Assembly: GCA_021774435.1 (NCBI GenBank)
Contig: JAJFJB010000249.1
Location: 53-64,052, forward strand
Reading direction: 5' to 3'
Origin: Alphaproteobacteria bacterium
GTDB lineage: Bacteria > Pseudomonadota > Alphaproteobacteria > UBA8366 > GCA-2717185
Length of the DNA stretch: 64,000 nt
Below the pieces are notes generated by a model, which saw nothing but the letters and a program-made list of their open reading frames with translations, did not search any database and had not been told where the DNA came from. Below are positions 1 through 39,870 of this stretch, piece after piece (positions within the stretch are counted from its first letter, which is position 1; each line of letters opens with the position of its first letter). The translations under genes were made by a program, and so were the position numbers.

Positions 1-105
1 AATGGCGCCCGCGACCGCTCCGACGGCACGCTGATTATCGGGATCGTCCGTGGTTTTACAGGCGGCAAGCGATAACGCGAGCACCAAGATGATGACTTGT
101 TTCAT
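1..105 (-). CDS. Lipoprotein, 5' part only (probable glycine-zipper/17 kDa surface-antigen-like); runs off the window
   Basis: Manual translation MKQVIILVLALSLAACKTTDDPDNQRAVGAVAGAI: signal peptide with lipobox LAAC, then the start of a GAxxGA zipper. Not in the ORF track. Confidence 0.7.
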   Translation of the reverse strand, partial: MKQVIILVLALSLAACKTTDDPDNQRAVGAVAGAI

Positions 106-229
106 TTACTTAATCGTCTCAGAATAACGAAGTGTTACGTCGACGCTCGGATGTTTGCGTTGGAAGCTTACTAAACGATTAATTTTACGGATTTCCGATG
201 TGATACAGGCGCCAGGAAGGTTTTTGCTT

Positions 230-481
230 CTAAGCCTTTGGGTCGGCCAAAGTGTTATATCCGAGCGCTTGGCGCATTTCCTCGACGTCCTCTTGTAAAC
301 CGGCACGTTCAAGAATGACGAGTACGCCTGCATCCATGGGTGCAGAGGAGACGGCCCGCCACCCTACCGACAATAAGTCGTTTAGCGCACGTATATCTGT
401 TGCGTTCTGGATTACGACGGCATGCTGGACACGAATTAATGTCTCTTCATCAGCCATGGTGTTATCGGCATTATTAGACAT
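230..481 (-). CDS. Small hypothetical protein (83 aa)
   Basis: GAGGA SD upstream of the ATG; protein-like composition; fills the gap upstream of the lipoprotein. Confidence 0.6.
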   Translation of the reverse strand: MSNNADNTMADEETLIRVQHAVVIQNATDIRALNDLLSVGWRAVSSAPMDAGVLVILERAGLQEDVEEMRQALGYNTLADPKA

Positions 482-2238: not shown

Positions 2239-2660
2239 TGCGGTCGTCCGGAGCGATTCTGGCGGCAAGCCTGGCACTTTTGACGGCTGCGTGCGACGAG
2301 GAGCCCGCGCCGGTGACCGGCAAGGCAAAGGTCGTCCTGGACCTTGTAGATCTATCCTATGCGTTCAAGGATGGCCGGCACACCTATACCCATAATCGCC
2401 AGTTCACGGAATCCGGTGGCGTCGGGGCGAATATTTCCCGGGGGAAAGTCTGCGTGCGCAATGGAGAGGAATGCGTCGACGCTCTGGTTGCTTATCGTGT
2501 CGATGCGTCGCAAGTGCTGCTGCAAAAAGGTCACCATGTTGCGACACCGGCGGCCAAAGACACGATTACGCTGCACTACTGGGTTAAGGATGATGCCGGG
2601 AATGAGTTCGAAATTCACAAGGTATTGAAAACGGATGGCGAAAAGGTAGTGTTCGAATAA
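2235..2660 (+). CDS. Hypothetical lipoprotein
   Basis: Signal peptide with lipobox LTAAC; GTGA overlap with the tldD stop. Confidence 0.75.
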   Translation: MMRSSGAILAASLALLTAACDEEPAPVTGKAKVVLDLVDLSYAFKDGRHTYTHNRQFTESGGVGANISRGKVCVRNGEECVDALVAYRVDASQVLLQKGHHVATPAAKDTITLHYWVKDDAGNEFEIHKVLKTDGEKVVFE

Positions 2661-2683
2661 TCGGAACCGGCCACATTGATCTT

Positions 2684-3439
2684 TCAGTTTAGAATTTCCG
2701 CCGTTTGTGTCTCCAGGCGTACCGATGGCGGGCTGCCAATTTCTCGAATCAGCTTTCGGCGGATTGCGGTCGCGAAGTCGGCAAAATTCTTCGCGCTTTC
2801 TACAAATGATCTAGGGCCGCCGATTACCTGATTTTTATAGTAAACAGCCAGATCTGGTTCATCATTGAGAATGGCGAGGCCATTTATCGTGATGCCGGCG
2901 GCAATGACCAACTGCCGAACTTCGGTTGGAAATACGCCTTGATTCGAGCTGCCATCGCCGGAAACATCGATCACATGGCGTACGCCTTCGAACCCGTTCT
3001 CCTCGAACAGGCCCGCGGAAAAGCTCAGCGCTTCTCCGAGCGCCGTAGCGCCCCATCGCATATACCGTGGTGACTGTTCGATTTCGCTGGCGAAAGCCGC
3101 GGCGCTTTTCTTATCGTGAACATGCATCCATGGGACCGCCTGGGTATGCATGCTGGCGCCTGACCATTGAACCAGCGTAACAGCAATGCCGTTCGGGATG
3201 GCTGAAGACAGTGCCTGCACAACGGGGGAGGAGCGGAACGCATCGGCGATACCGCGCATCTGCAATTCATACTCGTGCGGTTCCACGCTCGATGAACAGT
3301 CGATCGCCAGGATTAATTCCACCGCGACGGTTTCCGCTCGAGCCGGTATGGCGGGCCAAAGAATGATCAACGAAAGGACCAAAATCGATAGCCCTGTTGA
3401 CGCTGCGGTTGTCATGCGGTTGCAGAACCTCTCCATCAT
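2684..3439 (-). CDS. DUF1194 family vWA-like exported protein
   Basis: LILAIDCSSSV (MIDAS-like) and IDVSGDG motifs; signal peptide; true start probably slightly downstream. Confidence 0.88.
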   Translation of the reverse strand: MMERFCNRMTTAASTGLSILVLSLIILWPAIPARAETVAVELILAIDCSSSVEPHEYELQMRGIADAFRSSPVVQALSSAIPNGIAVTLVQWSGASMHTQAVPWMHVHDKKSAAAFASEIEQSPRYMRWGATALGEALSFSAGLFEENGFEGVRHVIDVSGDGSSNQGVFPTEVRQLVIAAGITINGLAILNDEPDLAVYYKNQVIGGPRSFVESAKNFADFATAIRRKLIREIGSPPSVRLETQTAEILN

Positions 3440-3550
3440 ATCGACATACTAGCCTCGTGAAGGTCGCGCGTCAGCAATCGTAGCGTGTTGCATCGAACAC
3501 AAGTCAGTGTTTAGAACCAATGTCAGGTAAGTTAGTCGAGGGACTGTGTC

Positions 3551-4195
3551 GTGTTCAAATCACTTAAATATAGCGCAATTTTGACGATGCTCTTGGTTCC
3601 CCGCCTGGTGATGGCAGCAGGCGTTCCCGAGGAAGGGATCCTAGATTTTGCGATTTTGCGCGATGGTGCGGAAATTGGCAGCCACGTCATTCGGTTCGAA
3701 AAGGTGGGCGAGCCGACGGTCGTTCAGATCGAGGCAAAGGTCGATTATCGGCTCGCCTTTATTCCACTGTATTTATTTGAGCATACGGCGCGCGAGGAAT
3801 GGCGGAACGGTCGGCTGGTTGGGATGTCCGTGCAGACCAATGACAATGGCGACGATTATCGCGTCGCGGTTACGTCTGCGGGCGATAACCTGACGCTTTC
3901 TATCAATGGCGACGGAACGGCAATCGACCCCCGCACGATACCGGCGAGCTTGTGGAATATCGCGGTCGTTGATCAGAAAACGATACTTGATCCTGCGGAT
4001 GGCGATATGATGAATGTGTCGGTTCGAGAATCCGGGGAAGAGGTGATAGAAGTGCGCGGAAAATCCGTGCGCGCCAAGCTCTATGTCATGACCGGGGATT
4101 TCAAACGCAATCTTTGGTACGACGCGCACAAAGTCCTCGTACAGGTACAATTCGAAGGCAGAGATGGTTCGGAAATCCGCTATAAGCTTCGTTGA
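3551..4195 (+). CDS. DUF6134-like exported protein
   Basis: Signal peptide; FAILRDGAEIGSH...EEWRNGRL...PASLWN...LWYD pattern. Confidence 0.75.
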   Translation: MFKSLKYSAILTMLLVPRLVMAAGVPEEGILDFAILRDGAEIGSHVIRFEKVGEPTVVQIEAKVDYRLAFIPLYLFEHTAREEWRNGRLVGMSVQTNDNGDDYRVAVTSAGDNLTLSINGDGTAIDPRTIPASLWNIAVVDQKTILDPADGDMMNVSVRESGEEVIEVRGKSVRAKLYVMTGDFKRNLWYDAHKVLVQVQFEGRDGSEIRYKLR

Positions 4196-29387: not shown

Positions 29388-30404
29388 TTAGAGCCCCTGA
29401 CGGACCCGCGGAAACACTTCTTCGGCGATGATTTGCATCGTCTCCATGGAGCGGGAAACTTCGAGTCCCGGCCAATGCATACTCATGACGACATGGTTCA
29501 TGCCGACCCGCTTGCTGAATTTTATCATCTGTTCGGCGACGTCGTCGGGGGATCCGATAAAAAACCGGTCCTTGAGCAACTCCTCGAAGGGTTGCCCCAG
29601 CTCATCTTTCGCATCCGGACGCGACCGTCCGAGGCCCCAGGCGTGGTAGGCCCGGTACTTCGTCATGATCGGTTCCTTGGCGACCCGATAGGCTTCCTCG
29701 CGGGTCGGCGCGACGAAGACTTCGCGACGGAACGGAAATTCTGCCGGGAATGGTTTCCCGGCGCTGTCCAAAGCGCGTTTGTAGGTTTCCACCTGACTGG
29801 CAACTTCATCTAGCCGGTCATTGGGCCCGACATAGAAGCAATCGCCCATGCGGGCCGCACGCTCAATCACCGCATCGGCACTGCCGCCGATCCAGATTGG
29901 CGGATGCGGTTTCTGCACGGGTTTCGCTGAGCATGCGGCGTCATCAAGCTCAAAATGTGAGCCTTTCATCGTCACTGTATCTTCGGTCCACAGCCGCTTG
30001 ATCGCAGTCAGGTTTTCTTCAAAGCGGCGTGCGCGGGCGCGTCTGGAAGTACCGAATGCCTTGAATTCCACGTCCCGATAACCGACGCCACATCCGAAGA
30101 TGAGCTTGCCGTTCGTCATGATATCCAAGGTGCCGAGCTGTTCTGCCACGTCGAGCGGTTTGTGCAGCGGCAGCAGAAGAACGCCAGTATTAAGGCGCAG
30201 ACTCGGGGCTTCTGCGGCGATTCGGGCAAGAAACGGCACTTGTTGCAGATCCTGCAATGGATGCGTGCTGTAATGAGACCCCTTAGTGATTGAATCATAC
30301 CCAAGTTTCTCCGCGAGGCGGGCTTGTTCCAGCATTTCGCCGAACCGATCGGCAACCGCGTCGTCTTGGGGAAACTGTCCCCGCATCATGATCCCAAACT
30401 GCAT
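29388..30404 (-). CDS. LLM class flavin-dependent oxidoreductase
   Basis: AEKLGYDS, PLDVAEQLGTLD...GKLIFGCGVGY, PVQKPHPPIWIGG, GSPDDVAE. Confidence 0.92.
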   Translation of the reverse strand: MQFGIMMRGQFPQDDAVADRFGEMLEQARLAEKLGYDSITKGSHYSTHPLQDLQQVPFLARIAAEAPSLRLNTGVLLLPLHKPLDVAEQLGTLDIMTNGKLIFGCGVGYRDVEFKAFGTSRRARARRFEENLTAIKRLWTEDTVTMKGSHFELDDAACSAKPVQKPHPPIWIGGSADAVIERAARMGDCFYVGPNDRLDEVASQVETYKRALDSAGKPFPAEFPFRREVFVAPTREEAYRVAKEPIMTKYRAYHAWGLGRSRPDAKDELGQPFEELLKDRFFIGSPDDVAEQMIKFSKRVGMNHVVMSMHWPGLEVSRSMETMQIIAEEVFPRVRQGL

Positions 30405-30557
30405 ATCGACCCCCTAAATCCGGCTATGACCGAATGATAAGCGAATTGCCATTGGAACAACCAATTTTTCATGGCAGTACGATATTTGTGAGAGGGCTGG
30501 TGCACGGCTCGCCCTCTGTTAATCTAGCGGCAAATTTCCAGACATTGGGGTGACGAT

Positions 30558-32162
30558 ATGGCGGGCGCGGAAGACGAATTCGATTACATAATTGCTGGCG
30601 CGGGGTCGGCCGGTTGCGTTCTGGCGAACAGATTGTCGGCTGATCCTCGCAACAGAGTCCTGCTGCTGGAAGCCGGCGGTCGCGACAACTACCCGTGGAT
30701 TCACATCCCTGTCGGTTATTTCAAAACAATTCTGAATCCCAGAACGGACTGGTGTTTCTACACAGAGCCCGACCCGGGCTTGAATGGTCGCAGCATTCCC
30801 TGGCCGCGCGGCAAGGTGTTGGGCGGTTCCAGTTCGATTAACGGCCTCGTCTATATTCGCGGACAAAGCCACGATTACGACCAGTGGCGGCAGCTCGGCA
30901 ATACCGGCTGGGCGTGGGACGATGTGTTGCCCTATTTCATGAAGGCGGAAGATCAGCAGCGGGGGCCAAGTGAGACGCACGGCGCCGGGGGGCCGTTGGG
31001 CGTTTCCGATATTGGGTTTTCCCGCGGATTTTCGGATGCGTTCATTGATGCGGCCGAGGAGACGGGTATACCGCGAACGGACGATTTCAACAGTGGAAAC
31101 CAGGAAGGGGCAGGCTATTTCCAGCTCACCACACGCAATGGCCGGCGGTGCAGCACGGCGGTTGGCTATCTGCGGCCAGTCAAAGGGCGATCGAATCTTT
31201 CCATCACGACAAACGCCATGGTTCGCCGTGTTGTCTTCGAAGGCAAACGGGCGACGGGCATCGAATATTCCGTGAATGGCCAGACGCGAATGTCCAAGGC
31301 AAAAGGCGAGGTCATCCTGTCCTCCGGCGCGATCGGGTCGCCGCAGATCTTGCAATTATCCGGCGTTGGACCCGGCGCCGTCTTGGCCGAAGCGGGGGTT
31401 CCTGTCGTTCATGACGCGCCCGGCGTGGGCGACAATCTGCAGGACCATTTGCAGATCCGAGCGATCTACAAGACCAATCAGCCCTCGCTCAATGATGAAG
31501 TGAACAGCCTGTACCGCAAAGCGCTGATGGGTCTCGAGTATATTTTCACCCGGAAGGGGCCGCTTACCTTGGCCGCTGGGCATGTCGGGATGTTCGCGAG
31601 GACGCGTGAGGATCTGGAAACGCCGGACGTGCAATTTCACCTGATCCCGCTGAGCACCAAGGCGCCGGGTGAGGGGTTGCACGAGTTCTCCGCCTTCACG
31701 TCGTCGGTTTGCCAATTGCGGCCCGAGTCGCGCGGCAAAATTACGATTAAATCTGCCGAGCCGACGGACTATCCGGCTATATATCCGAACTATCTGTCTG
31801 CGCTGACCGATCAGCAGACAATTGTCGCGGGCATGAAATTGTCGCGGAAGATAATGGCGACACCGACGATGCAGTCGCTGATTACAGAAGAATTCATGCC
31901 GGGTCTGGATGTCCAATCGGACGAAGAACTTCTAGAGCATGCGCGCGAAAATGCGGGAACGATTTATCATCCGGTGGGTACGTGCAAGATGGGCGACGAT
32001 CCGACGGCGGTCGTTGATGAACGCCTGCGTGTGCACGGTATCGAAGGTCTGCGGGTCGTCGATGCATCGATCATGCCGACCTTAGTATCCGGCAATACAA
32101 ATGCGCCGTCGATCATGATCGGCGAGAAAGCATCGGATATGATTCTGGAAGATGCGCGTTAA
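30558..32162 (+). CDS. GMC oxidoreductase (choline/alcohol dehydrogenase-like)
   Basis: DYIIAGAGSAGCVLANRLS, GKVLGGSSSING, YHPVGTCKMG, GNTNAP. Confidence 0.95.
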   Translation: MAGAEDEFDYIIAGAGSAGCVLANRLSADPRNRVLLLEAGGRDNYPWIHIPVGYFKTILNPRTDWCFYTEPDPGLNGRSIPWPRGKVLGGSSSINGLVYIRGQSHDYDQWRQLGNTGWAWDDVLPYFMKAEDQQRGPSETHGAGGPLGVSDIGFSRGFSDAFIDAAEETGIPRTDDFNSGNQEGAGYFQLTTRNGRRCSTAVGYLRPVKGRSNLSITTNAMVRRVVFEGKRATGIEYSVNGQTRMSKAKGEVILSSGAIGSPQILQLSGVGPGAVLAEAGVPVVHDAPGVGDNLQDHLQIRAIYKTNQPSLNDEVNSLYRKALMGLEYIFTRKGPLTLAAGHVGMFARTREDLETPDVQFHLIPLSTKAPGEGLHEFSAFTSSVCQLRPESRGKITIKSAEPTDYPAIYPNYLSALTDQQTIVAGMKLSRKIMATPTMQSLITEEFMPGLDVQSDEELLEHARENAGTIYHPVGTCKMGDDPTAVVDERLRVHGIEGLRVVDASIMPTLVSGNTNAPSIMIGEKASDMILEDAR

Positions 32163-32208
32163 AAAACGTACGCTTTGTCTAATTCATTGATTAGCGGAGG
32201 AAAGCAAT

Positions 32209-33939
32209 ATGCATGCAATGGAAGTTTTTGACCCGAGCGGCGCGACGGAGGTGCTGAAGCTGCACGCGCCACGTCTCGATACGCTTAACGGCAAGACCGT
32301 GGCGCTCGTCTCGGACGATATGTGGCAGGCACACCGTATGCTGCCTTTGGTGCGCGAGAAGCTGGAAGCGCAATTTCCCGATGCGACCTTTATCCCGGAA
32401 ACCGAATTTCCGATGGGTACGCGGGAGATGGATACCGAAGAAACCGTCGACATGCTGGAAGCACGCGGCGTCGATGCGGTTATCGTCGGGAACGCCTCCT
32501 GAGGCGCCTGCGCGACAGCATGCGGCCGTGTTGCCGCTCGTATTGAAAGCAGGGGTATCCCTACCGTTATTCTGACTCGCGAAGATTTCGTGGGTGTGGT
32601 GCGTAATTCCTTGGCTGGCCTCGGTTTCGATCAGGATGCCTCCATGGTGGTCTTTCCGATCGACCCCTTCCTGGTCGATAGCGATTTGACGCCGATCGAG
32701 AAAAAGATCGATGCGTTCAGCGAAGGCCTGACCGACTGGCAGGCCGCGACGAACGAAACCGGGGTGAAGCATCCGCCGAAAATACCGATCGAGGCCAATG
32801 GTTATGAGGCCGCCTTCGACAAAATGAACCGTCAATTCCTCGTCAACACCTGGGGTGATGGTTTGCCGGTCAATCCACCGACGCAGGCGCGAGTCGATTG
32901 GATCATGAAAGGCACCGATCTGGCACCGGACACGGTGATTGGCAAGGTCATGCCGCGGGGCGGTATTGCAACCGCGGAAACGCTCGCGATTTCCCTGGCG
33001 ATGGCAGGCGGCCGACCGGAATATTTGCCGGTTCTAATTGCCGCAACGCACTGTGTTCTCGATCCGATGTTGGAGCACGACAAGTTCCAGGCGACGTCGG
33101 ATAGCACCTTCCCGGTGGTCATCGTAAATGGGCCTATCGCGGCAGATATTCGGCTCAATTCCGGCTTCGGGTTGTTGGGCCCGGATCCGCAGCATCCAGC
33201 CGGTGCCTCCATCGGCCGTGCACTGCGGCTGATTCAGCAGAATGTTGGCGGTGCCTTGCCCGGGGTCGGTACGATGTCGATCTATGGCGCAATGCGTACT
33301 GCGAACGTTGTCTTTGCGGAAGATGAAGACGGTCTGCCGCCGGGTTGGGAACCAGTCAGCACGAACCAGAGCGGAACGCCACGCGGCGAGAATGCAGTGA
33401 CGGTTTTTGTTGCCACCGGGGCTTCCAATATTGTCCGGCGTGGCGTCGGCAAGGAAACGGCGGAAGATGAGGCCAATGAAAGCCGGTACCGTGTTGCCGG
33501 TTATCTGCGCAGCCCCACGGTACATTATCTCGATGGACATGCGCGAGGAACGCCTGGTGCGTTATTGATGCCGCGCGTGGTCGCCAAGCAACTCGCCGAT
33601 CTCGGTTGGACCAAGGAGAAAATCAAGACCTTCCTGTGGGAAAATTCGAAAATCCCGCACGAGGAGATCGTTCGCACCGGTATGCGGCAATGGATCGAAA
33701 CCAGTGTTGATCCAGAAACGGTTGCTTCGGCCAACGATGATCCTTGGTCAATTTGCAGCGACCCGTCGCAAATCATCCTCGCCGTCGCCGGGGGCGCGCA
33801 TCCGACTCATAATTTTTGGATGCAGGGAAACGCGCCAAGAGTGGCAAGCGGTTCAATCGATTTACCGCAGGATTGGCAGGCGCTTGTTGCGGAGGCCGAA
33901 GAGGATCTTGGCCCCAGCGGCGAGATGTGTGTGATCTAA
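32209..33939 (+). CDS. Predicted selenoprotein: UGSC-type UxxC domain fused to an uncharacterised C-terminal domain (576 aa, Sec at codon 98)
   Basis: GGAGG SD; in-frame TGA at 32500-32502 in VIVGNAS-U-GACATACGRVAARIESRGIPTV; the frame stays open into the 32590 ORF (offset 381 nt = 127 codons); SECIS-like hairpin follows. Confidence 0.85.
32512..32537 (+). promoter_or_regulatory. Putative bacterial SECIS element
   Basis: GCGACAGCATG-CGGC-CGTGTTGCCGC: 11-position stem with one A/C mismatch and two G-U pairs; 4-nt loop with G at position 2; 20 nt between UGA and loop. Confidence 0.7.
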
Positions 33940-33947
33940 AAACGGTT

Positions 33948-33989
33948 TTACGACTGGTTGGAACAGAAAGCAATTCCAACCAGTCGTAA
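33948..33989. repeat. Perfect 16-bp inverted repeat between convergent genes (palindromic element, likely bidirectional terminator)
   Basis: TTACGACTGGTTGGAA-N10-TTCCAACCAGTCGTAA. Confidence 0.75.
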
Positions 33990-33994
33990 TCACT

Positions 33995-34492
33995 TCAACC
34001 CGCAGCGTCCGCCACCGGTGCCGACTCCGGACTGACTGCTTTGAGCCCTGCGCCTTTCGCAGGCGACTTACCGCTTGCCGCAGCGATATCGCCGGCAATT
34101 TCGCCGCCTTCCTCGATTGTCAGGCGGCCATAGCGGATCGTGCCGGTGACATGGCCCGTTTTGTGAATGACAAGGCGGTCCCGTGCGGTTAGGTCACCCT
34201 CGAACCGCCCATGAATTTCGGCTTCATCAATCGTTGCCGCGCCCACGAAAACACCTGACGTTTCGATTTGAAGGACGCGACTGTCCATGGAAGCTTCGAC
34301 CCGGCCTTCGACGAAGAGCGTGTCGCAATCTTCAATCGCGGCACTTTTTAGGCGAATGTCAGGCCCAACCGTCAGCCGGCCTGCGGGTCCGCCGGGTTCC
34401 GGCATCGCGGGGGTGCGGCGTGATTGTCTCGCGGCATTCTGCGCGGCGGCGGTGTCTGGCCTCGCCGGCGTTTCCGTTTGCTTCTTGAACAT
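33995..34492 (-). CDS. Bactofilin (polymer-forming cytoskeletal protein)
   Basis: LTVGPDIRLK..I..CDTLFVEG.VE..., AEIHGRFEGDLTA..RLVI..TG.VTGTIRYG.L.IEEGG.I.G. Confidence 0.9.
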   Translation of the reverse strand: MFKKQTETPARPDTAAAQNAARQSRRTPAMPEPGGPAGRLTVGPDIRLKSAAIEDCDTLFVEGRVEASMDSRVLQIETSGVFVGAATIDEAEIHGRFEGDLTARDRLVIHKTGHVTGTIRYGRLTIEEGGEIAGDIAAASGKSPAKGAGLKAVSPESAPVADAAG

Positions 34493-34595
34493 GATCGATA
34501 GGCCCTCCCGAATGTTGCGTAAGCCCTAATCGATAAAAACAAAAAGCGGCGAGAAACCGAACGGAAATGCGGCAATGAAAAGGCAGTTTTTTGGC

Positions 34596-34661
34596 TTAGA
34601 TCAGATCACGATGTGTTGGAATCGCTTTTGCGATCCAAAAAAGCGTGTGAAGGTGCTCTAA
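34596..34661. repeat. Degenerate palindromic repeat element (REP/RIME-like)
   Basis: TTAGATCAGATCACG...GTTGGAATCGC-TTTT-GCGATCCAA...CGTGTGAAGGTGCTCTAA; shares TGTGAAGGTGCT with the element after lepA. Confidence 0.55.
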
Positions 34662-38523: not shown

Positions 38524-38859
38524 TTACTCGAAGCCGCTGCGTTTTCTCACCCGGGGCCTGCCGAGCCGGATGCAAATTCCGCCCAACAGCAGCAAAATTA
38601 CAAAAACGATGATGATGGCTTCCCAGACCGGGCGGGCTAAAAGATAGGGCACAATCACCGAATCCCAGAAAGCGGGCAGGTGAAGATGCCGTTGGATGAT
38701 TACCTGACTAAAATTCAGACTCGATACGTGGGCCTCAAACCAGGCCGCACCTGTTGCGCGCGTGACATCGGCGCCAAACAGCCAAATCGCCAGCCCGGCG
38801 ACGAGCGCTATCGCTGCGAGAATGATTAAAAGACGACCGATAATACGCAGGACGGCCAT
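38524..38859 (-). CDS. Hypothetical two-TM membrane protein
   Basis: Two hydrophobic helices flanking W...H.SSLN..Q.IIQR...P..W; basic C-terminus. Confidence 0.8.
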   Translation of the reverse strand: MAVLRIIGRLLIILAAIALVAGLAIWLFGADVTRATGAAWFEAHVSSLNFSQVIIQRHLHLPAFWDSVIVPYLLARPVWEAIIIVFVILLLLGGICIRLGRPRVRKRSGFE

Positions 38860-38934
38860 TGTTCAGTCCGATATTCCACTATTACTGGCGCGGAACCTAA
38901 CACGAGCGTGTGCTGTGGAAAATAGCCACTGTTC

Positions 38935-38963
38935 TTGCACCCCTAAACGTCTAGAGGTAATGT
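38935..38963 (+). promoter_or_regulatory. Putative sigma70 promoter of the tRNA
   Basis: TTGCAC-N17-TAATGT ending 14 nt upstream of the tRNA. Confidence 0.45.
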
Positions 38964-38977
38964 CCCCGCGCCCGGAC

Positions 38978-39068
38978 GGAGGGATGGCCGAGTGGCTTAA
39001 GGCGCACGCTTGGAAAGCGTGTTTAGGGTACCCCCCTAACGTGGGTTCGAATCCCACTCCCTCCGCCA
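38978..39068 (+). tRNA. tRNA-Ser(GGA)
   Basis: Acceptor GGAGGGA/TCCCTCC-G-CCA; anticodon arm CACGC-TTGGAAA-GCGTG; long variable arm; T-loop GGTTCGAATCC. Confidence 0.97.
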
Positions 39069-39094
39069 TTTTTCGCTGCTATGCGGCTTTTATA

Positions 39095-39715
39095 TCAACG
39101 CCAGGCGAAAACCGGCTGTTCCAGATGATCGACGCGCGTGTCGCGACCGAAGATGCCGACTTCGCGGAATTGATAGATCAACGCTGCTGTCGGGGCATGG
39201 ACCTTGGCGCGGGCGATGTTGAGGCGGATGAGGGGGCGGTCGCTTTCGGGAATCGAGGCGAACTCAGGTGTTTCCGGCCGGGCGAGGCGTTCCAGGGTTA
39301 CGATATGCACGCGCTCGACTTCGCCGGGTTCGGGTACGACGTTGACGGAACCGCCGGCCCACATCACGACTGGCGTGATCCGATAGCCGGACCGGGTCGG
39401 ATAATCGTCGAGCAGGCCGATGACGGAGTCTTCGCCCAGTTCGACACCCATTTCCTCGTGCAGTTCCCGCAAAGCCGCTTCGACGGAATTTTCCCCCGGA
39501 TCGACACGTCCGCCGGGCAGTGCGAACTGCCGCGAATGCGCGTTCAGCGACGCGGTTCGGCGGGTCAGCAGAAAGGCGGCACCATGCCGCGAATCGACGA
39601 CCGTTATGGCAACGGCCGCATGTGTCAGCCCGTCGTCAACGACCCGACGATCTTCGAAGCGATTGATATTTTCACTAATTTTGGTACGCAAATCGTCGTC
39701 ATAATTGTAGGACAC
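39095..39715 (-). CDS. CoA pyrophosphatase-type Nudix hydrolase (second paralog)
   Basis: LLTRRTASLNAHSRQFALPGG, ALRELHEEMG, YPTRSGYRITPVV; GTG start inferred (ORF track 39826). Confidence 0.88.
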   Translation of the reverse strand: MSYNYDDDLRTKISENINRFEDRRVVDDGLTHAAVAITVVDSRHGAAFLLTRRTASLNAHSRQFALPGGRVDPGENSVEAALRELHEEMGVELGEDSVIGLLDDYPTRSGYRITPVVMWAGGSVNVVPEPGEVERVHIVTLERLARPETPEFASIPESDRPLIRLNIARAKVHAPTAALIYQFREVGIFGRDTRVDHLEQPVFAWR

Positions 39716-39870
39716 GGTCAGGTTTGGCCTCTGAAGGGTGCAGGGGGAGCTGGCACGAATTTGTGAACACGCTACAGCCCCAGGACGGTGTGGCGCAATG
39801 TCGAAACCGGTTGTCTGGCACCCCATGAGCGCCTAAATCTCTATAATTCAGTCATTTATGCAGGTGCATA

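Follow-up and report, generated by a model that had tools for sequence, protein, structure and literature searches.

Contig JAJFJB010000249.1 of the Alphaproteobacteria bacterium assembly GCA_021774435.1 was analysed over a stretch of 64,000 nucleotides (positions 53 to 64,052 of the forward strand), hereafter called the window, within which positions are counted from its first letter. The subject of this analysis is a locus near the middle of the window (Table 1) which is one gene and not two, and in which a TGA codon almost certainly codes for selenocysteine (Sec). When translated with genetic code table 11, the list of open reading frames (ORFs) contains at this place a 97-aa ORF (32209-32502) and a 449-aa ORF that begins at GTG 32590. 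Read on the sequence itself, 32209-33939 on the plus strand is one frame of 576 codons followed by TAA (33937-33939), the only stop codon within it being the TGA at codon 98 (32500-32502). The text runs ...AVIVGNAS-TGA-GACATACGRVAARIESRGIPTV..., and the read-through product, of 576 residues, carries the motif U98-G-A-C101, a further cysteine at position 105 and a tail ending in ...GEMCVI, of which the cysteine is Cys574. An initial annotation of this DNA, made from its letters, had described this same arrangement, with a short ORF ending at a TGA and the frame open on to 33939, and all of it was recovered. It had also stated that the downstream ORF possesses only a GTG start; neither a GGAGG-type Shine-Dalgarno sequence nor any recognisable ribosome-binding site was found ahead of GTG 32590, and in the AlphaFold2 model described below that start would fall within a folded domain. 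The database entry for the window's own gene is a protein of 431 aa beginning at Met146. A reassigned genetic code is no explanation for the in-frame TGA since the codon serves as an ordinary stop here, terminating 17 of the 39 long ORFs in the window. A promoter scan of 30300-34600 returned no sigma-70-like promoter.

Table 1. Features of the selenoprotein locus and its immediate surroundings (window positions).
Feature	Position	Strand	Basis and remarks
GMC-family flavoprotein oxidoreductase (choline-dehydrogenase-like) gene	30558-32162	+	Pfam GMC_oxred_N and GMC_oxred_C; 46 nt between its end and the selenoprotein start
Shine-Dalgarno sequence GGAGG	32196-32200	+	8-nt spacer to ATG 32209; read from the sequence
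Predicted complete selenoprotein coding sequence	32209-33939	+	576 codons + TAA, with TGA codon 98 read as Sec; conserved over its full length across the TGA
UGSC domain, residues 5-148	32221-32652	+	Pfam PF24696, 75.7 bits (cutoff 25), E 6e-21; modelled as a three-layer alpha/beta fold
Predicted Sec codon TGA (U98), motif U-G-A-C101	32500-32502	+	Opposite an invariant Cys in 25/25 uninterrupted homologues; 69 TGA and 10 TGC at 79 sites
SECIS-like structure	32507-32553	+	Core hairpin within a longer CCUGC...GCAGG helix
Core hairpin: GCGGC, loop CGUGUU, GCCGC	32522-32526, 32527-32532, 32533-32537	+	Starts at +22, counted from the U of UGA
C-terminal domain, residues ~185-572	32761-33924	+	No recognised family or fold; alignment A2 and a model of the domain alone
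Cys574 in the disordered tail GEMCVI	33928-33930	+	Invariant in alignment A1 (26 sequences); restricted to the subfamily
Perfect 17-bp inverted repeat	33948-33989		Between the selenoprotein gene and the convergent bactofilin gene; T-run on the minus-strand side only

The homologue survey covered the best 120 database matches, and an orthologue alignment (A1) was made of 26 sequences. Twenty-five of the 120 matches were uninterrupted proteins of 573-587 residues with the Pfam UGSC domain, while the other 95, of 431-457 residues, start only just past the TGA. This comparison of fused and split forms, proposed at the outset, also bears out the statement that standard pipelines would split the gene, as has happened to the entry for the window's own copy. 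In the uninterrupted homologues (49-78% identity), position 98 is Cys in 25 of 25, as had been anticipated, and C98, G99 and C101 are invariant. When 41 related genomes were searched in six frames, 22 full-length matches came up in 20 of them (50-100% identity), each with exactly one TGA. Among the named loci, the motif was found in 77 of 80, its 79 sites being divided into 69 with TGA and 10 with TGC; the third motif position within the orthologue group is A, S, G, N or R. Purifying selection was seen on both sides of the TGA. The recurrence of TGA at the same codon across related genomes is therefore far beyond chance, and neither sequencing error nor pseudogenisation can yield such a pattern. 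One public DNA contig of 665 nt covers the TGA without differences, although its independence from the window's assembly is uncertain and it may derive from the same sample. The hosts among the named records are mainly uncultured Alphaproteobacteria (Rhodospirillaceae-type metagenome-assembled genomes, MAGs) and Burkholderiales from metagenomes, with single records from Entotheonella, Ectothiorhodospiraceae, Lambdaproteobacteria and Streptomycetaceae; those of the Cys form include one Variovorax and two Rhizobiales recorded as isolates rather than MAGs.

Two further observations concern individual copies of the gene. In some genomes the orthologue is tandemly duplicated (loci L034/L035 in genomes G018 and G031, and loci L102/L103), both copies having the TGA; at L034 and at L035 the hairpin described in the next paragraph is also present in both copies. 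In relative G035 (contig C5, 3001-4729, minus strand), the gene is split over two frames, one for residues 1-130 and one for 129-576; this points to a frameshift shortly past the UGSC core, either in a broken copy or through an assembly error.

Bacterial selenocysteine insertion sequence (SECIS) elements are stem-loops located soon downstream of the UGA, within a set range of distances, and have G/U in the apical loop. A hairpin whose geometry, we take it, fits such elements (GCGGC-CGUGUU-GCCGC) lies inside the coding sequence shortly after the TGA. This exact hairpin was found at +22 in 62 of the 69 TGA genes compared with none of the 10 TGC genes, and five of the other seven TGA genes retain the stem via G-U changes. 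When synonymous variation was examined in 18 distinct orthologues, 95% of the 241 conserved degenerate codons were seen to vary, the value for codons 99-116 being only 7 of 15; outside these codons it was nowhere under 80% along the gene. In the paralogues the same CGUGYU loop sits on another stem (GCCCGC/GCGGGC) at +13, i.e. nine bases nearer the UGA, where different amino acids are encoded. With the loop shared while stem and codons differ, a constraint on the protein hardly explains the hairpin. In Rfam it matched no family, the SECIS families included.

The genome to which the window belongs is a MAG of 527 contigs with an estimated contamination of 6.3%. The presence of selA, selB, selC and selD had been named as a check on the proposal, and all four were found elsewhere in the MAG: selA (576 bits), selB (split across two contig ends), selD and a gene for tRNA-Sec (71 bits; called by ARAGORN as SeC with anticodon tca). 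Both G005 (20 contigs) and G038 (2 contigs), far less fragmented relatives that have the TGA form, possess selA and tRNA-Sec; in three Cys-form genomes, selA was missing in two and present in one. The same genome encodes two paralogous UGSC fusions with a TGA at the homologous position, their motif being C-U-G-S-C. The idea of a hidden selenoprotein consisting of a UGSC-type Sec domain and a large uncharacterised domain is thus upheld by the Pfam match, the cysteine in the uninterrupted homologues and the presence of the Sec machinery, and we are highly confident that a real Sec-containing fusion protein is encoded here. In addition, the selD gene of this genome (contig C325 of G000, 1-450, minus strand; locus L010), which is cut by the contig end, has one in-frame TGA, and its sequence suggests that SelD is probably itself a Sec-containing protein.

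The N-terminal 148 residues match the UGSC family (PF24696, NF041046; Zhang and Gladyshev, 2007 and 2008) well above the Pfam cutoff, with the UxxC motif after a beta-strand and, as in that family, with Sec in the motif of some homologues and Cys in that of others. The sequence U-G-A-C followed by ESRGIPTV was judged to follow the family pattern U/C-G-S-C plus E-x-x-G-I-P-T-V; of the UGSC-type motif initially claimed, the UxxC and the E-x-x-G-I-P-T-V parts therefore stand, but the motif itself is U-G-A-C, not U-G-S-C. The NCBIfam equivalog model NF041046 gave only 47.2 bits against a cutoff of 125, because it describes standalone proteins of ~150 residues whereas the present protein has 576; annotation pipelines therefore do not rescue the gene. 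Judged by these comparisons, the protein is a UGSC member at the domain level rather than an equivalog of the standalone form. An AlphaFold2 model of the full-length protein (m917c26e1ba24), built with 60 diverse relatives, reached a predicted local distance difference test score (pLDDT) of 94.9 and a predicted TM score (pTM) of 0.94, and the mutual arrangement of the two domains is therefore defined. In this model the N-terminal domain has a parallel alpha/beta architecture of three layers, in which Sec98 opens helix 99-113 right after strand 90-96. Fold searches with the full-length model gave only generic alpha/beta matches, to residues 24-183, the best 50 in VIA being flavodoxin-, CheY- or Rossmann-like chains (Z 9-11). 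On these best 50 matches, the model points to a flavodoxin/Rossmann-like fold rather than the 'likely Trx-like fold' suggested where the family is treated in the 2008 study (PMC2398784).

Weak NCBIfam matches centred on the Sec residue were obtained for PrdB (E 0.002) and GrdH (E 0.006). From such sequence similarity, the UGSC Sec region is likely to be distantly related to the Sec loop of GrdB/PrdB; no family membership is claimed. GrdB, GrdH and PrdB (PF07355) share with the present protein a local layout of strand, U-G-x-C, helix and G-I/L-P-T, as can be seen when the GrdB-like selenoprotein of the same genome (...AVILTST-U-GTC-TRCG...ELERAGLPT) is set beside it (...AVIVGNAS-U-GAC-ATACG...RIESRGIPT). 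They differ in that the Sec domain is N-terminal here but C-terminal in GrdB; moreover, no gene for a GrdE/PrdA pyruvoyl subunit (PF09338) lies beside this gene, and the fused domain is unrelated to the genome's GrdE-like protein. In PrdB and GrdB, a selenolate acts as the nucleophile and a Cys three residues on resolves the intermediate; by analogy, the UGSC fusion likely works in a similar way.

The GrdB-like selenoprotein just mentioned is encoded on contig C421 of G000 (locus L134, which together with the gene next to it takes up 1243-2589 and 2555-3793, both on the minus strand). It matches PF07355 with 445 bits and has an in-frame TGA at codon 364 (...AVILTST-U-GTC...), and a GrdE-like 'Gly_reductase' (PF09338) gene lies directly upstream. 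A pair of this glycine/sarcosine/betaine-reductase type was unexpected, given that the close relatives of this genome are Alphaproteobacteria/Rhodospirillaceae MAGs. The match to the GRDB profile PF07355 (347 positions) stops at residue 363, one before the Sec; the profile seems to have been built from TGA-truncated sequences and is therefore blind to the Sec loop. On contig C315 (1369-2103, plus strand; L135), a small PrdB-like ORF passes a TGA (...AAILVPV-U-PNC...). This locus and seven further ones (L136-L141 and one on C353) contain ORFs of ~160-200 residues whose match to the GRDB profile is confined to its last third, and their sequences suggest that several may be additional small PrdB-like selenoproteins.

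The C-terminal domain, when modelled alone, gave a pLDDT of 93.6. In an alignment of 60 diverse relatives (A2), residues A260, M265, P270, G308, R337 and E371 are invariant, the near-invariant ones including D217, G218, P220, P223 and T225. The family is large (3,939 clusters at 50% identity, E <= 1e-3), yet it could be tied to no described family or structure. Foldseek against the PDB produced no convincing fold relative (best E 4.8e-3 at a TM of about 0.2), the best Z of VIA-align against 48,161 chains was 5.3, which is under the tool's stated noise level, and phmmer and profile searches of PDB sequences gave nothing credible (best E 0.17). With Pfam, none of 56 members showed a family for this domain, the only matches being to UGSC in the N-terminal parts; five standalone or excised copies gave no match in NCBIfam; and a search of the Atlas restricted to named clusters returned no usable match for the domain. 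The nearest Atlas clusters bear the automatic name 'thiol-disulfide oxidoreductase family protein' (score 0.97), which was treated as a lead only. The description of the fused domain as uncharacterised can therefore be maintained, now with a confident structural model. An origin of the domain from GrdE/PrdA or from the N-terminal part of GrdB was considered and rejected, as the only part matched was a leftover UGSC tail in the alignment. A second redox fusion, P0258 (494 aa, on a 102-kb contig), in which the domain is followed by a C-terminal FtrB-like domain (PF02943, E 1e-16) and which also weakly matches the NCBIfam 'FtrB family double-selenoprotein', is real but the sole example among 159 candidates; in the absence of a second such sequence, little weight was placed on it. 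Standalone copies of the domain occur in this genome on contig C151 (L053; 11137-14250, plus strand), where three lie in tandem (347, 347 and 339 aa) and are followed by an EamA transporter gene; this contig also bears the C-terminal part of selB. On contig C382 (L052; 3838-4992, plus strand), a further such copy is ~1.1 kb from the tRNA-Sec gene.

Two cysteines outside the motif had been singled out in the initial annotation. The extra C105 is present as stated, but it is not conserved among the Cys-type homologues; its codon lies inside the SECIS stem in the Sec forms, and the residue may therefore be kept for RNA reasons. As for the terminal cysteine, for which a resolving or shuttle role had been suggested, it is invariant in the 26 sequences of A1 but proves to be a subfamily trait. 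Of 32 uninterrupted Cys98 forms, 28 have it, as do 88 of the 124 TGA-cut forms, and it is absent from all distant fused forms; among the 'C-domain only' entries it occurs in just two, both of them short fragments from the C-terminal end of orthologue-group proteins. Residues 573-576 of the tail have a pLDDT below 50. Cys574 may be an accessory relay in this subfamily, outside the common mechanism.

The GMC gene that precedes the selenoprotein gene encodes a protein scoring 645.8 bits with PRK02106 of NCBIfam (cutoff 605) and 539 with betA (cutoff 732). Of 12 genus or family relatives, 11 have a GMC gene directly upstream in the same orientation; in all three genomes from a further genus it is adjacent yet convergent, and none of the five more distant loci showed it. 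The GMC and selenoprotein genes are probably co-transcribed, and the pair may therefore act on the same metabolite. Besides the GMC gene, the neighbours in the window include luciferase-like monooxygenase, bactofilin and SDR genes, and the inverted repeat between the selenoprotein and bactofilin genes is likely a terminator. Over 77 loci, the commonest neighbour clusters were TctC (16), SDR (10), GMC (9), CoA-transferase III (8) and MCP (7), which overall gives the neighbourhood a flavour of small-organic-molecule uptake and catabolism. One paralogue subfamily occurs in a cassette on one strand, represented in this genome on contig C514, in which a Sec-UGSC fusion is followed by a standalone C-terminal domain and by a thioredoxin-reductase (TrxR)-like flavoprotein. 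This order was found at all five loci with enough sequence, three more being interrupted by contig ends. The TrxR-like flavoprotein has 300 residues and scores 267 bits with TIGR01292, which is below the cutoff.

A mechanism can be proposed from these data. SelB and tRNA-Sec would recode UGA98 to selenocysteine, steered by the hairpin 22 nt downstream within the coding sequence. Sec98 and Cys101 would sit at the start of a helix on the flavodoxin-like alpha/beta domain, packed rigidly on the C-terminal domain of ~390 residues, and the substrate site would lie in the latter, with D217, T225, R337 and E371 as candidate residues. The U98 selenolate might then attack or reduce a small organic substrate bound in the C-terminal domain, after which C101 would resolve the intermediate with formation of an Se-S bond (selenenylsulfide), and a thioredoxin-type system, as in PrdB-type chemistry and as the paralogue cassette suggests, could re-reduce the Se-S centre; in this subfamily, electrons may be relayed by the flexible tail with Cys574. 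Taken as a whole, i.e. a 576-residue selenoprotein gene with its recoding, architecture, mechanism and context, this is very probably the best explanation of the locus. For one of its parts, namely a selenol/thiol-dependent oxidoreductase activity of the protein towards a small organic substrate, we put the chances at about even. A bolder extension, which we regard as speculative and doubtful, is that the C-terminal domain represents a new enzyme fold, forming with the UGSC centre an unrecognised class of single-chain, pyruvoyl-independent reductases capable of a GrdB/PrdB-like cleavage of osmolyte-type substrates (choline-, betaine- or carnitine-derived), with electrons arriving via the TrxR-like flavoprotein. 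Substrates of this type are hinted at because the neighbours include genes for GMC/choline-dehydrogenase-like proteins, CaiB-type CoA-transferases, TauD-type dioxygenases and TRAP/TctC uptake systems.

A number of results weigh against this explanation at one level or another. As regards recoding, the hairpin does not stand out from shuffled sequence in its folding energy (z 0.25), and the case for a SECIS element therefore rests on the comparative data; in these, G-U changes were seen but no double compensatory changes. The sel genes all lie on contigs other than that of the selenoprotein, in a MAG with the contamination given above. As regards the motif, homologues with a residue other than Cys at position 98 had been named as a finding that would speak against Sec. 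Throughout the orthologue group only Cys or Sec was found (25/25 proteins; TGA or TGC at 79/79 sites), but 7 of the 31 homologues that cover the motif, all 27-32% identical, have neither. As regards the kinship with GrdB/PrdB, the hhalign comparison with the genome's own GrdB-like selenoprotein placed Sec on Sec over 73 columns, with the weak values of E 1.1e-3 and a probability of 20%; Pfam GRDB (PF07355) gave no match at E <= 0.01, and the C-terminal domain shows no detectable kinship with either GrdE/PrdA or the N-terminal part of GrdB. That domain, furthermore, has no conserved Cys in A2 and occurs in several standalone copies per genome. With such paralogues, and with fused homologues lacking Cys/Sec98, its activity is probably not always dependent on the redox centre. 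The tail cysteine is missing in 36 of the 124 TGA-cut relatives (67-70% identical among those listed) and, being lost also in the distant fused forms, cannot be essential to the shared chemistry. Finally, the 406 flanking ORFs of the 77 loci contain no universal neighbour, and the TrxR-like partner belongs to the paralogue subfamily and not to the neighbourhood of this gene.

These points have to be set against what other readings of the locus can account for. Were the TGA a true stop, the locus would specify a 97-residue peptide and a separate protein of 431-449 residues, unless it were a pseudogene or the product of a sequencing error. This would agree with the two ORFs obtained with table 11, with public gene calls that take the downstream ORF and with the two-frame copy of G035, which indicates that broken copies occur. 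It is made extremely improbable, however, by the TGA recurring at the same codon at 69 sites in independent assemblies with purifying selection on both sides, by the Cys found there in all uninterrupted forms, by a hairpin present only with TGA forms, and by a downstream ORF that has no proper start signal and begins within a folded domain; the public contig spanning the TGA unchanged adds to this, although perhaps not independently of the window's assembly.

If a Sec-containing fusion is accepted, the main rival is that its UGSC part might be a redox switch that senses or gates activity, the C-terminal domain being a non-redox enzyme whose substrate is a small carboxylate or amide (a hydrolase, lyase, isomerase or dehydratase). 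Such a division of labour would suit a C-terminal domain that stands alone in many paralogues and has no conserved Cys, as well as the complete loss of the Cys/Sec motif in 7 of 31 fused homologues; even the faint fold hints (class I fumarate hydratase, L-serine dehydratase, PrpD and cyanuric acid hydrolase), all below noise level, are non-redox throughout. Sec is costly, however, and is typically retained at catalytic positions, the motif is strict in the orthologue group, and the dedicated TrxR-like reductase of the paralogue cassette argues for turnover and not sensing, so that a switch appears rather unlikely. Less probable still is that the selenoprotein serves the GMC oxidase as a peroxide- or aldehyde-handling partner, reducing H2O2 or a reactive product of alcohol oxidation. 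Sec-dependent peroxidases are common, and the GMC gene is directly upstream on the same strand in nearly all close relatives (11/12) and adjacent, in the other orientation, in another genus; but it neighbours only 9 of the 77 loci across the family and none of the five more distant ones, a conserved extra domain of 390 residues would be needless for peroxide reduction, and searches of Pfam and NCBIfam revealed no similarity to the Prx, GPx or AhpD families. The selenol/thiol-dependent oxidoreductase remains the reading that we prefer.

Proteins containing UGSC were named as selenoproteins without an assigned function in 2007, in the part of that paper dealing with them (PMC1976440). The 2008 Global Ocean Sampling (GOS) study, where it treats the family, counts UGSC among the most abundant selenoproteins of aquatic metagenomes and mentions a 'UGSC/Unknown_1 fusion' (Fig. 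S1A; PMC2398784); the family is listed without a function in the relevant passages of reviews of 2022 and 2026 (PMC9312934, PMC13188914). The initial statement that UGSC (seleno)proteins have no known function is borne out by a full-text literature search, in which no functional study of them was found. The GOS fusion resembles the present protein, as far as its description there goes, in joining UGSC to a conserved domain without known function, and its 'Unknown_1' is the putative and probable counterpart of the C-terminal domain analysed here. To that description the present analysis adds the family size, the SECIS element, a model unmatched in the PDB and the TrxR-like cassette. As documented in the cited parts of the 2007 and 2008 papers (PMC1976440, PMC2398784), the UGSC selenoprotein family and a fusion of UGSC to an unknown domain are thus already known; what is added here is the TGA-associated hairpin with its natural TGA-versus-TGC control, the likely kinship with the GrdB/PrdB Sec loop, a predicted fold that seems other than Trx-like, a C-terminal family that is large and has no structural or family assignment, and the TrxR-like cassette. 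The fused UGSC form is systematically mis-annotated, 95 of the 120 nearest database entries being without the whole Sec domain and the NCBIfam model falling short, and surveys of selenoproteomes and of this enzyme family therefore undercount it. The family has now become experimentally approachable, there being a defined SECIS, Cys-type orthologues in isolates, a confident model, candidate active-site residues and, in the paralogous cassette, a TrxR-like partner.

Elsewhere in the window, a tRNA-Ser gene (GGA) was found at 38978-39068 on the plus strand, at which a sub-threshold match to tRNA-Sec (41 bits) was also recorded. The 334-aa ORF that overlies it (38762-39766) is probably spurious.

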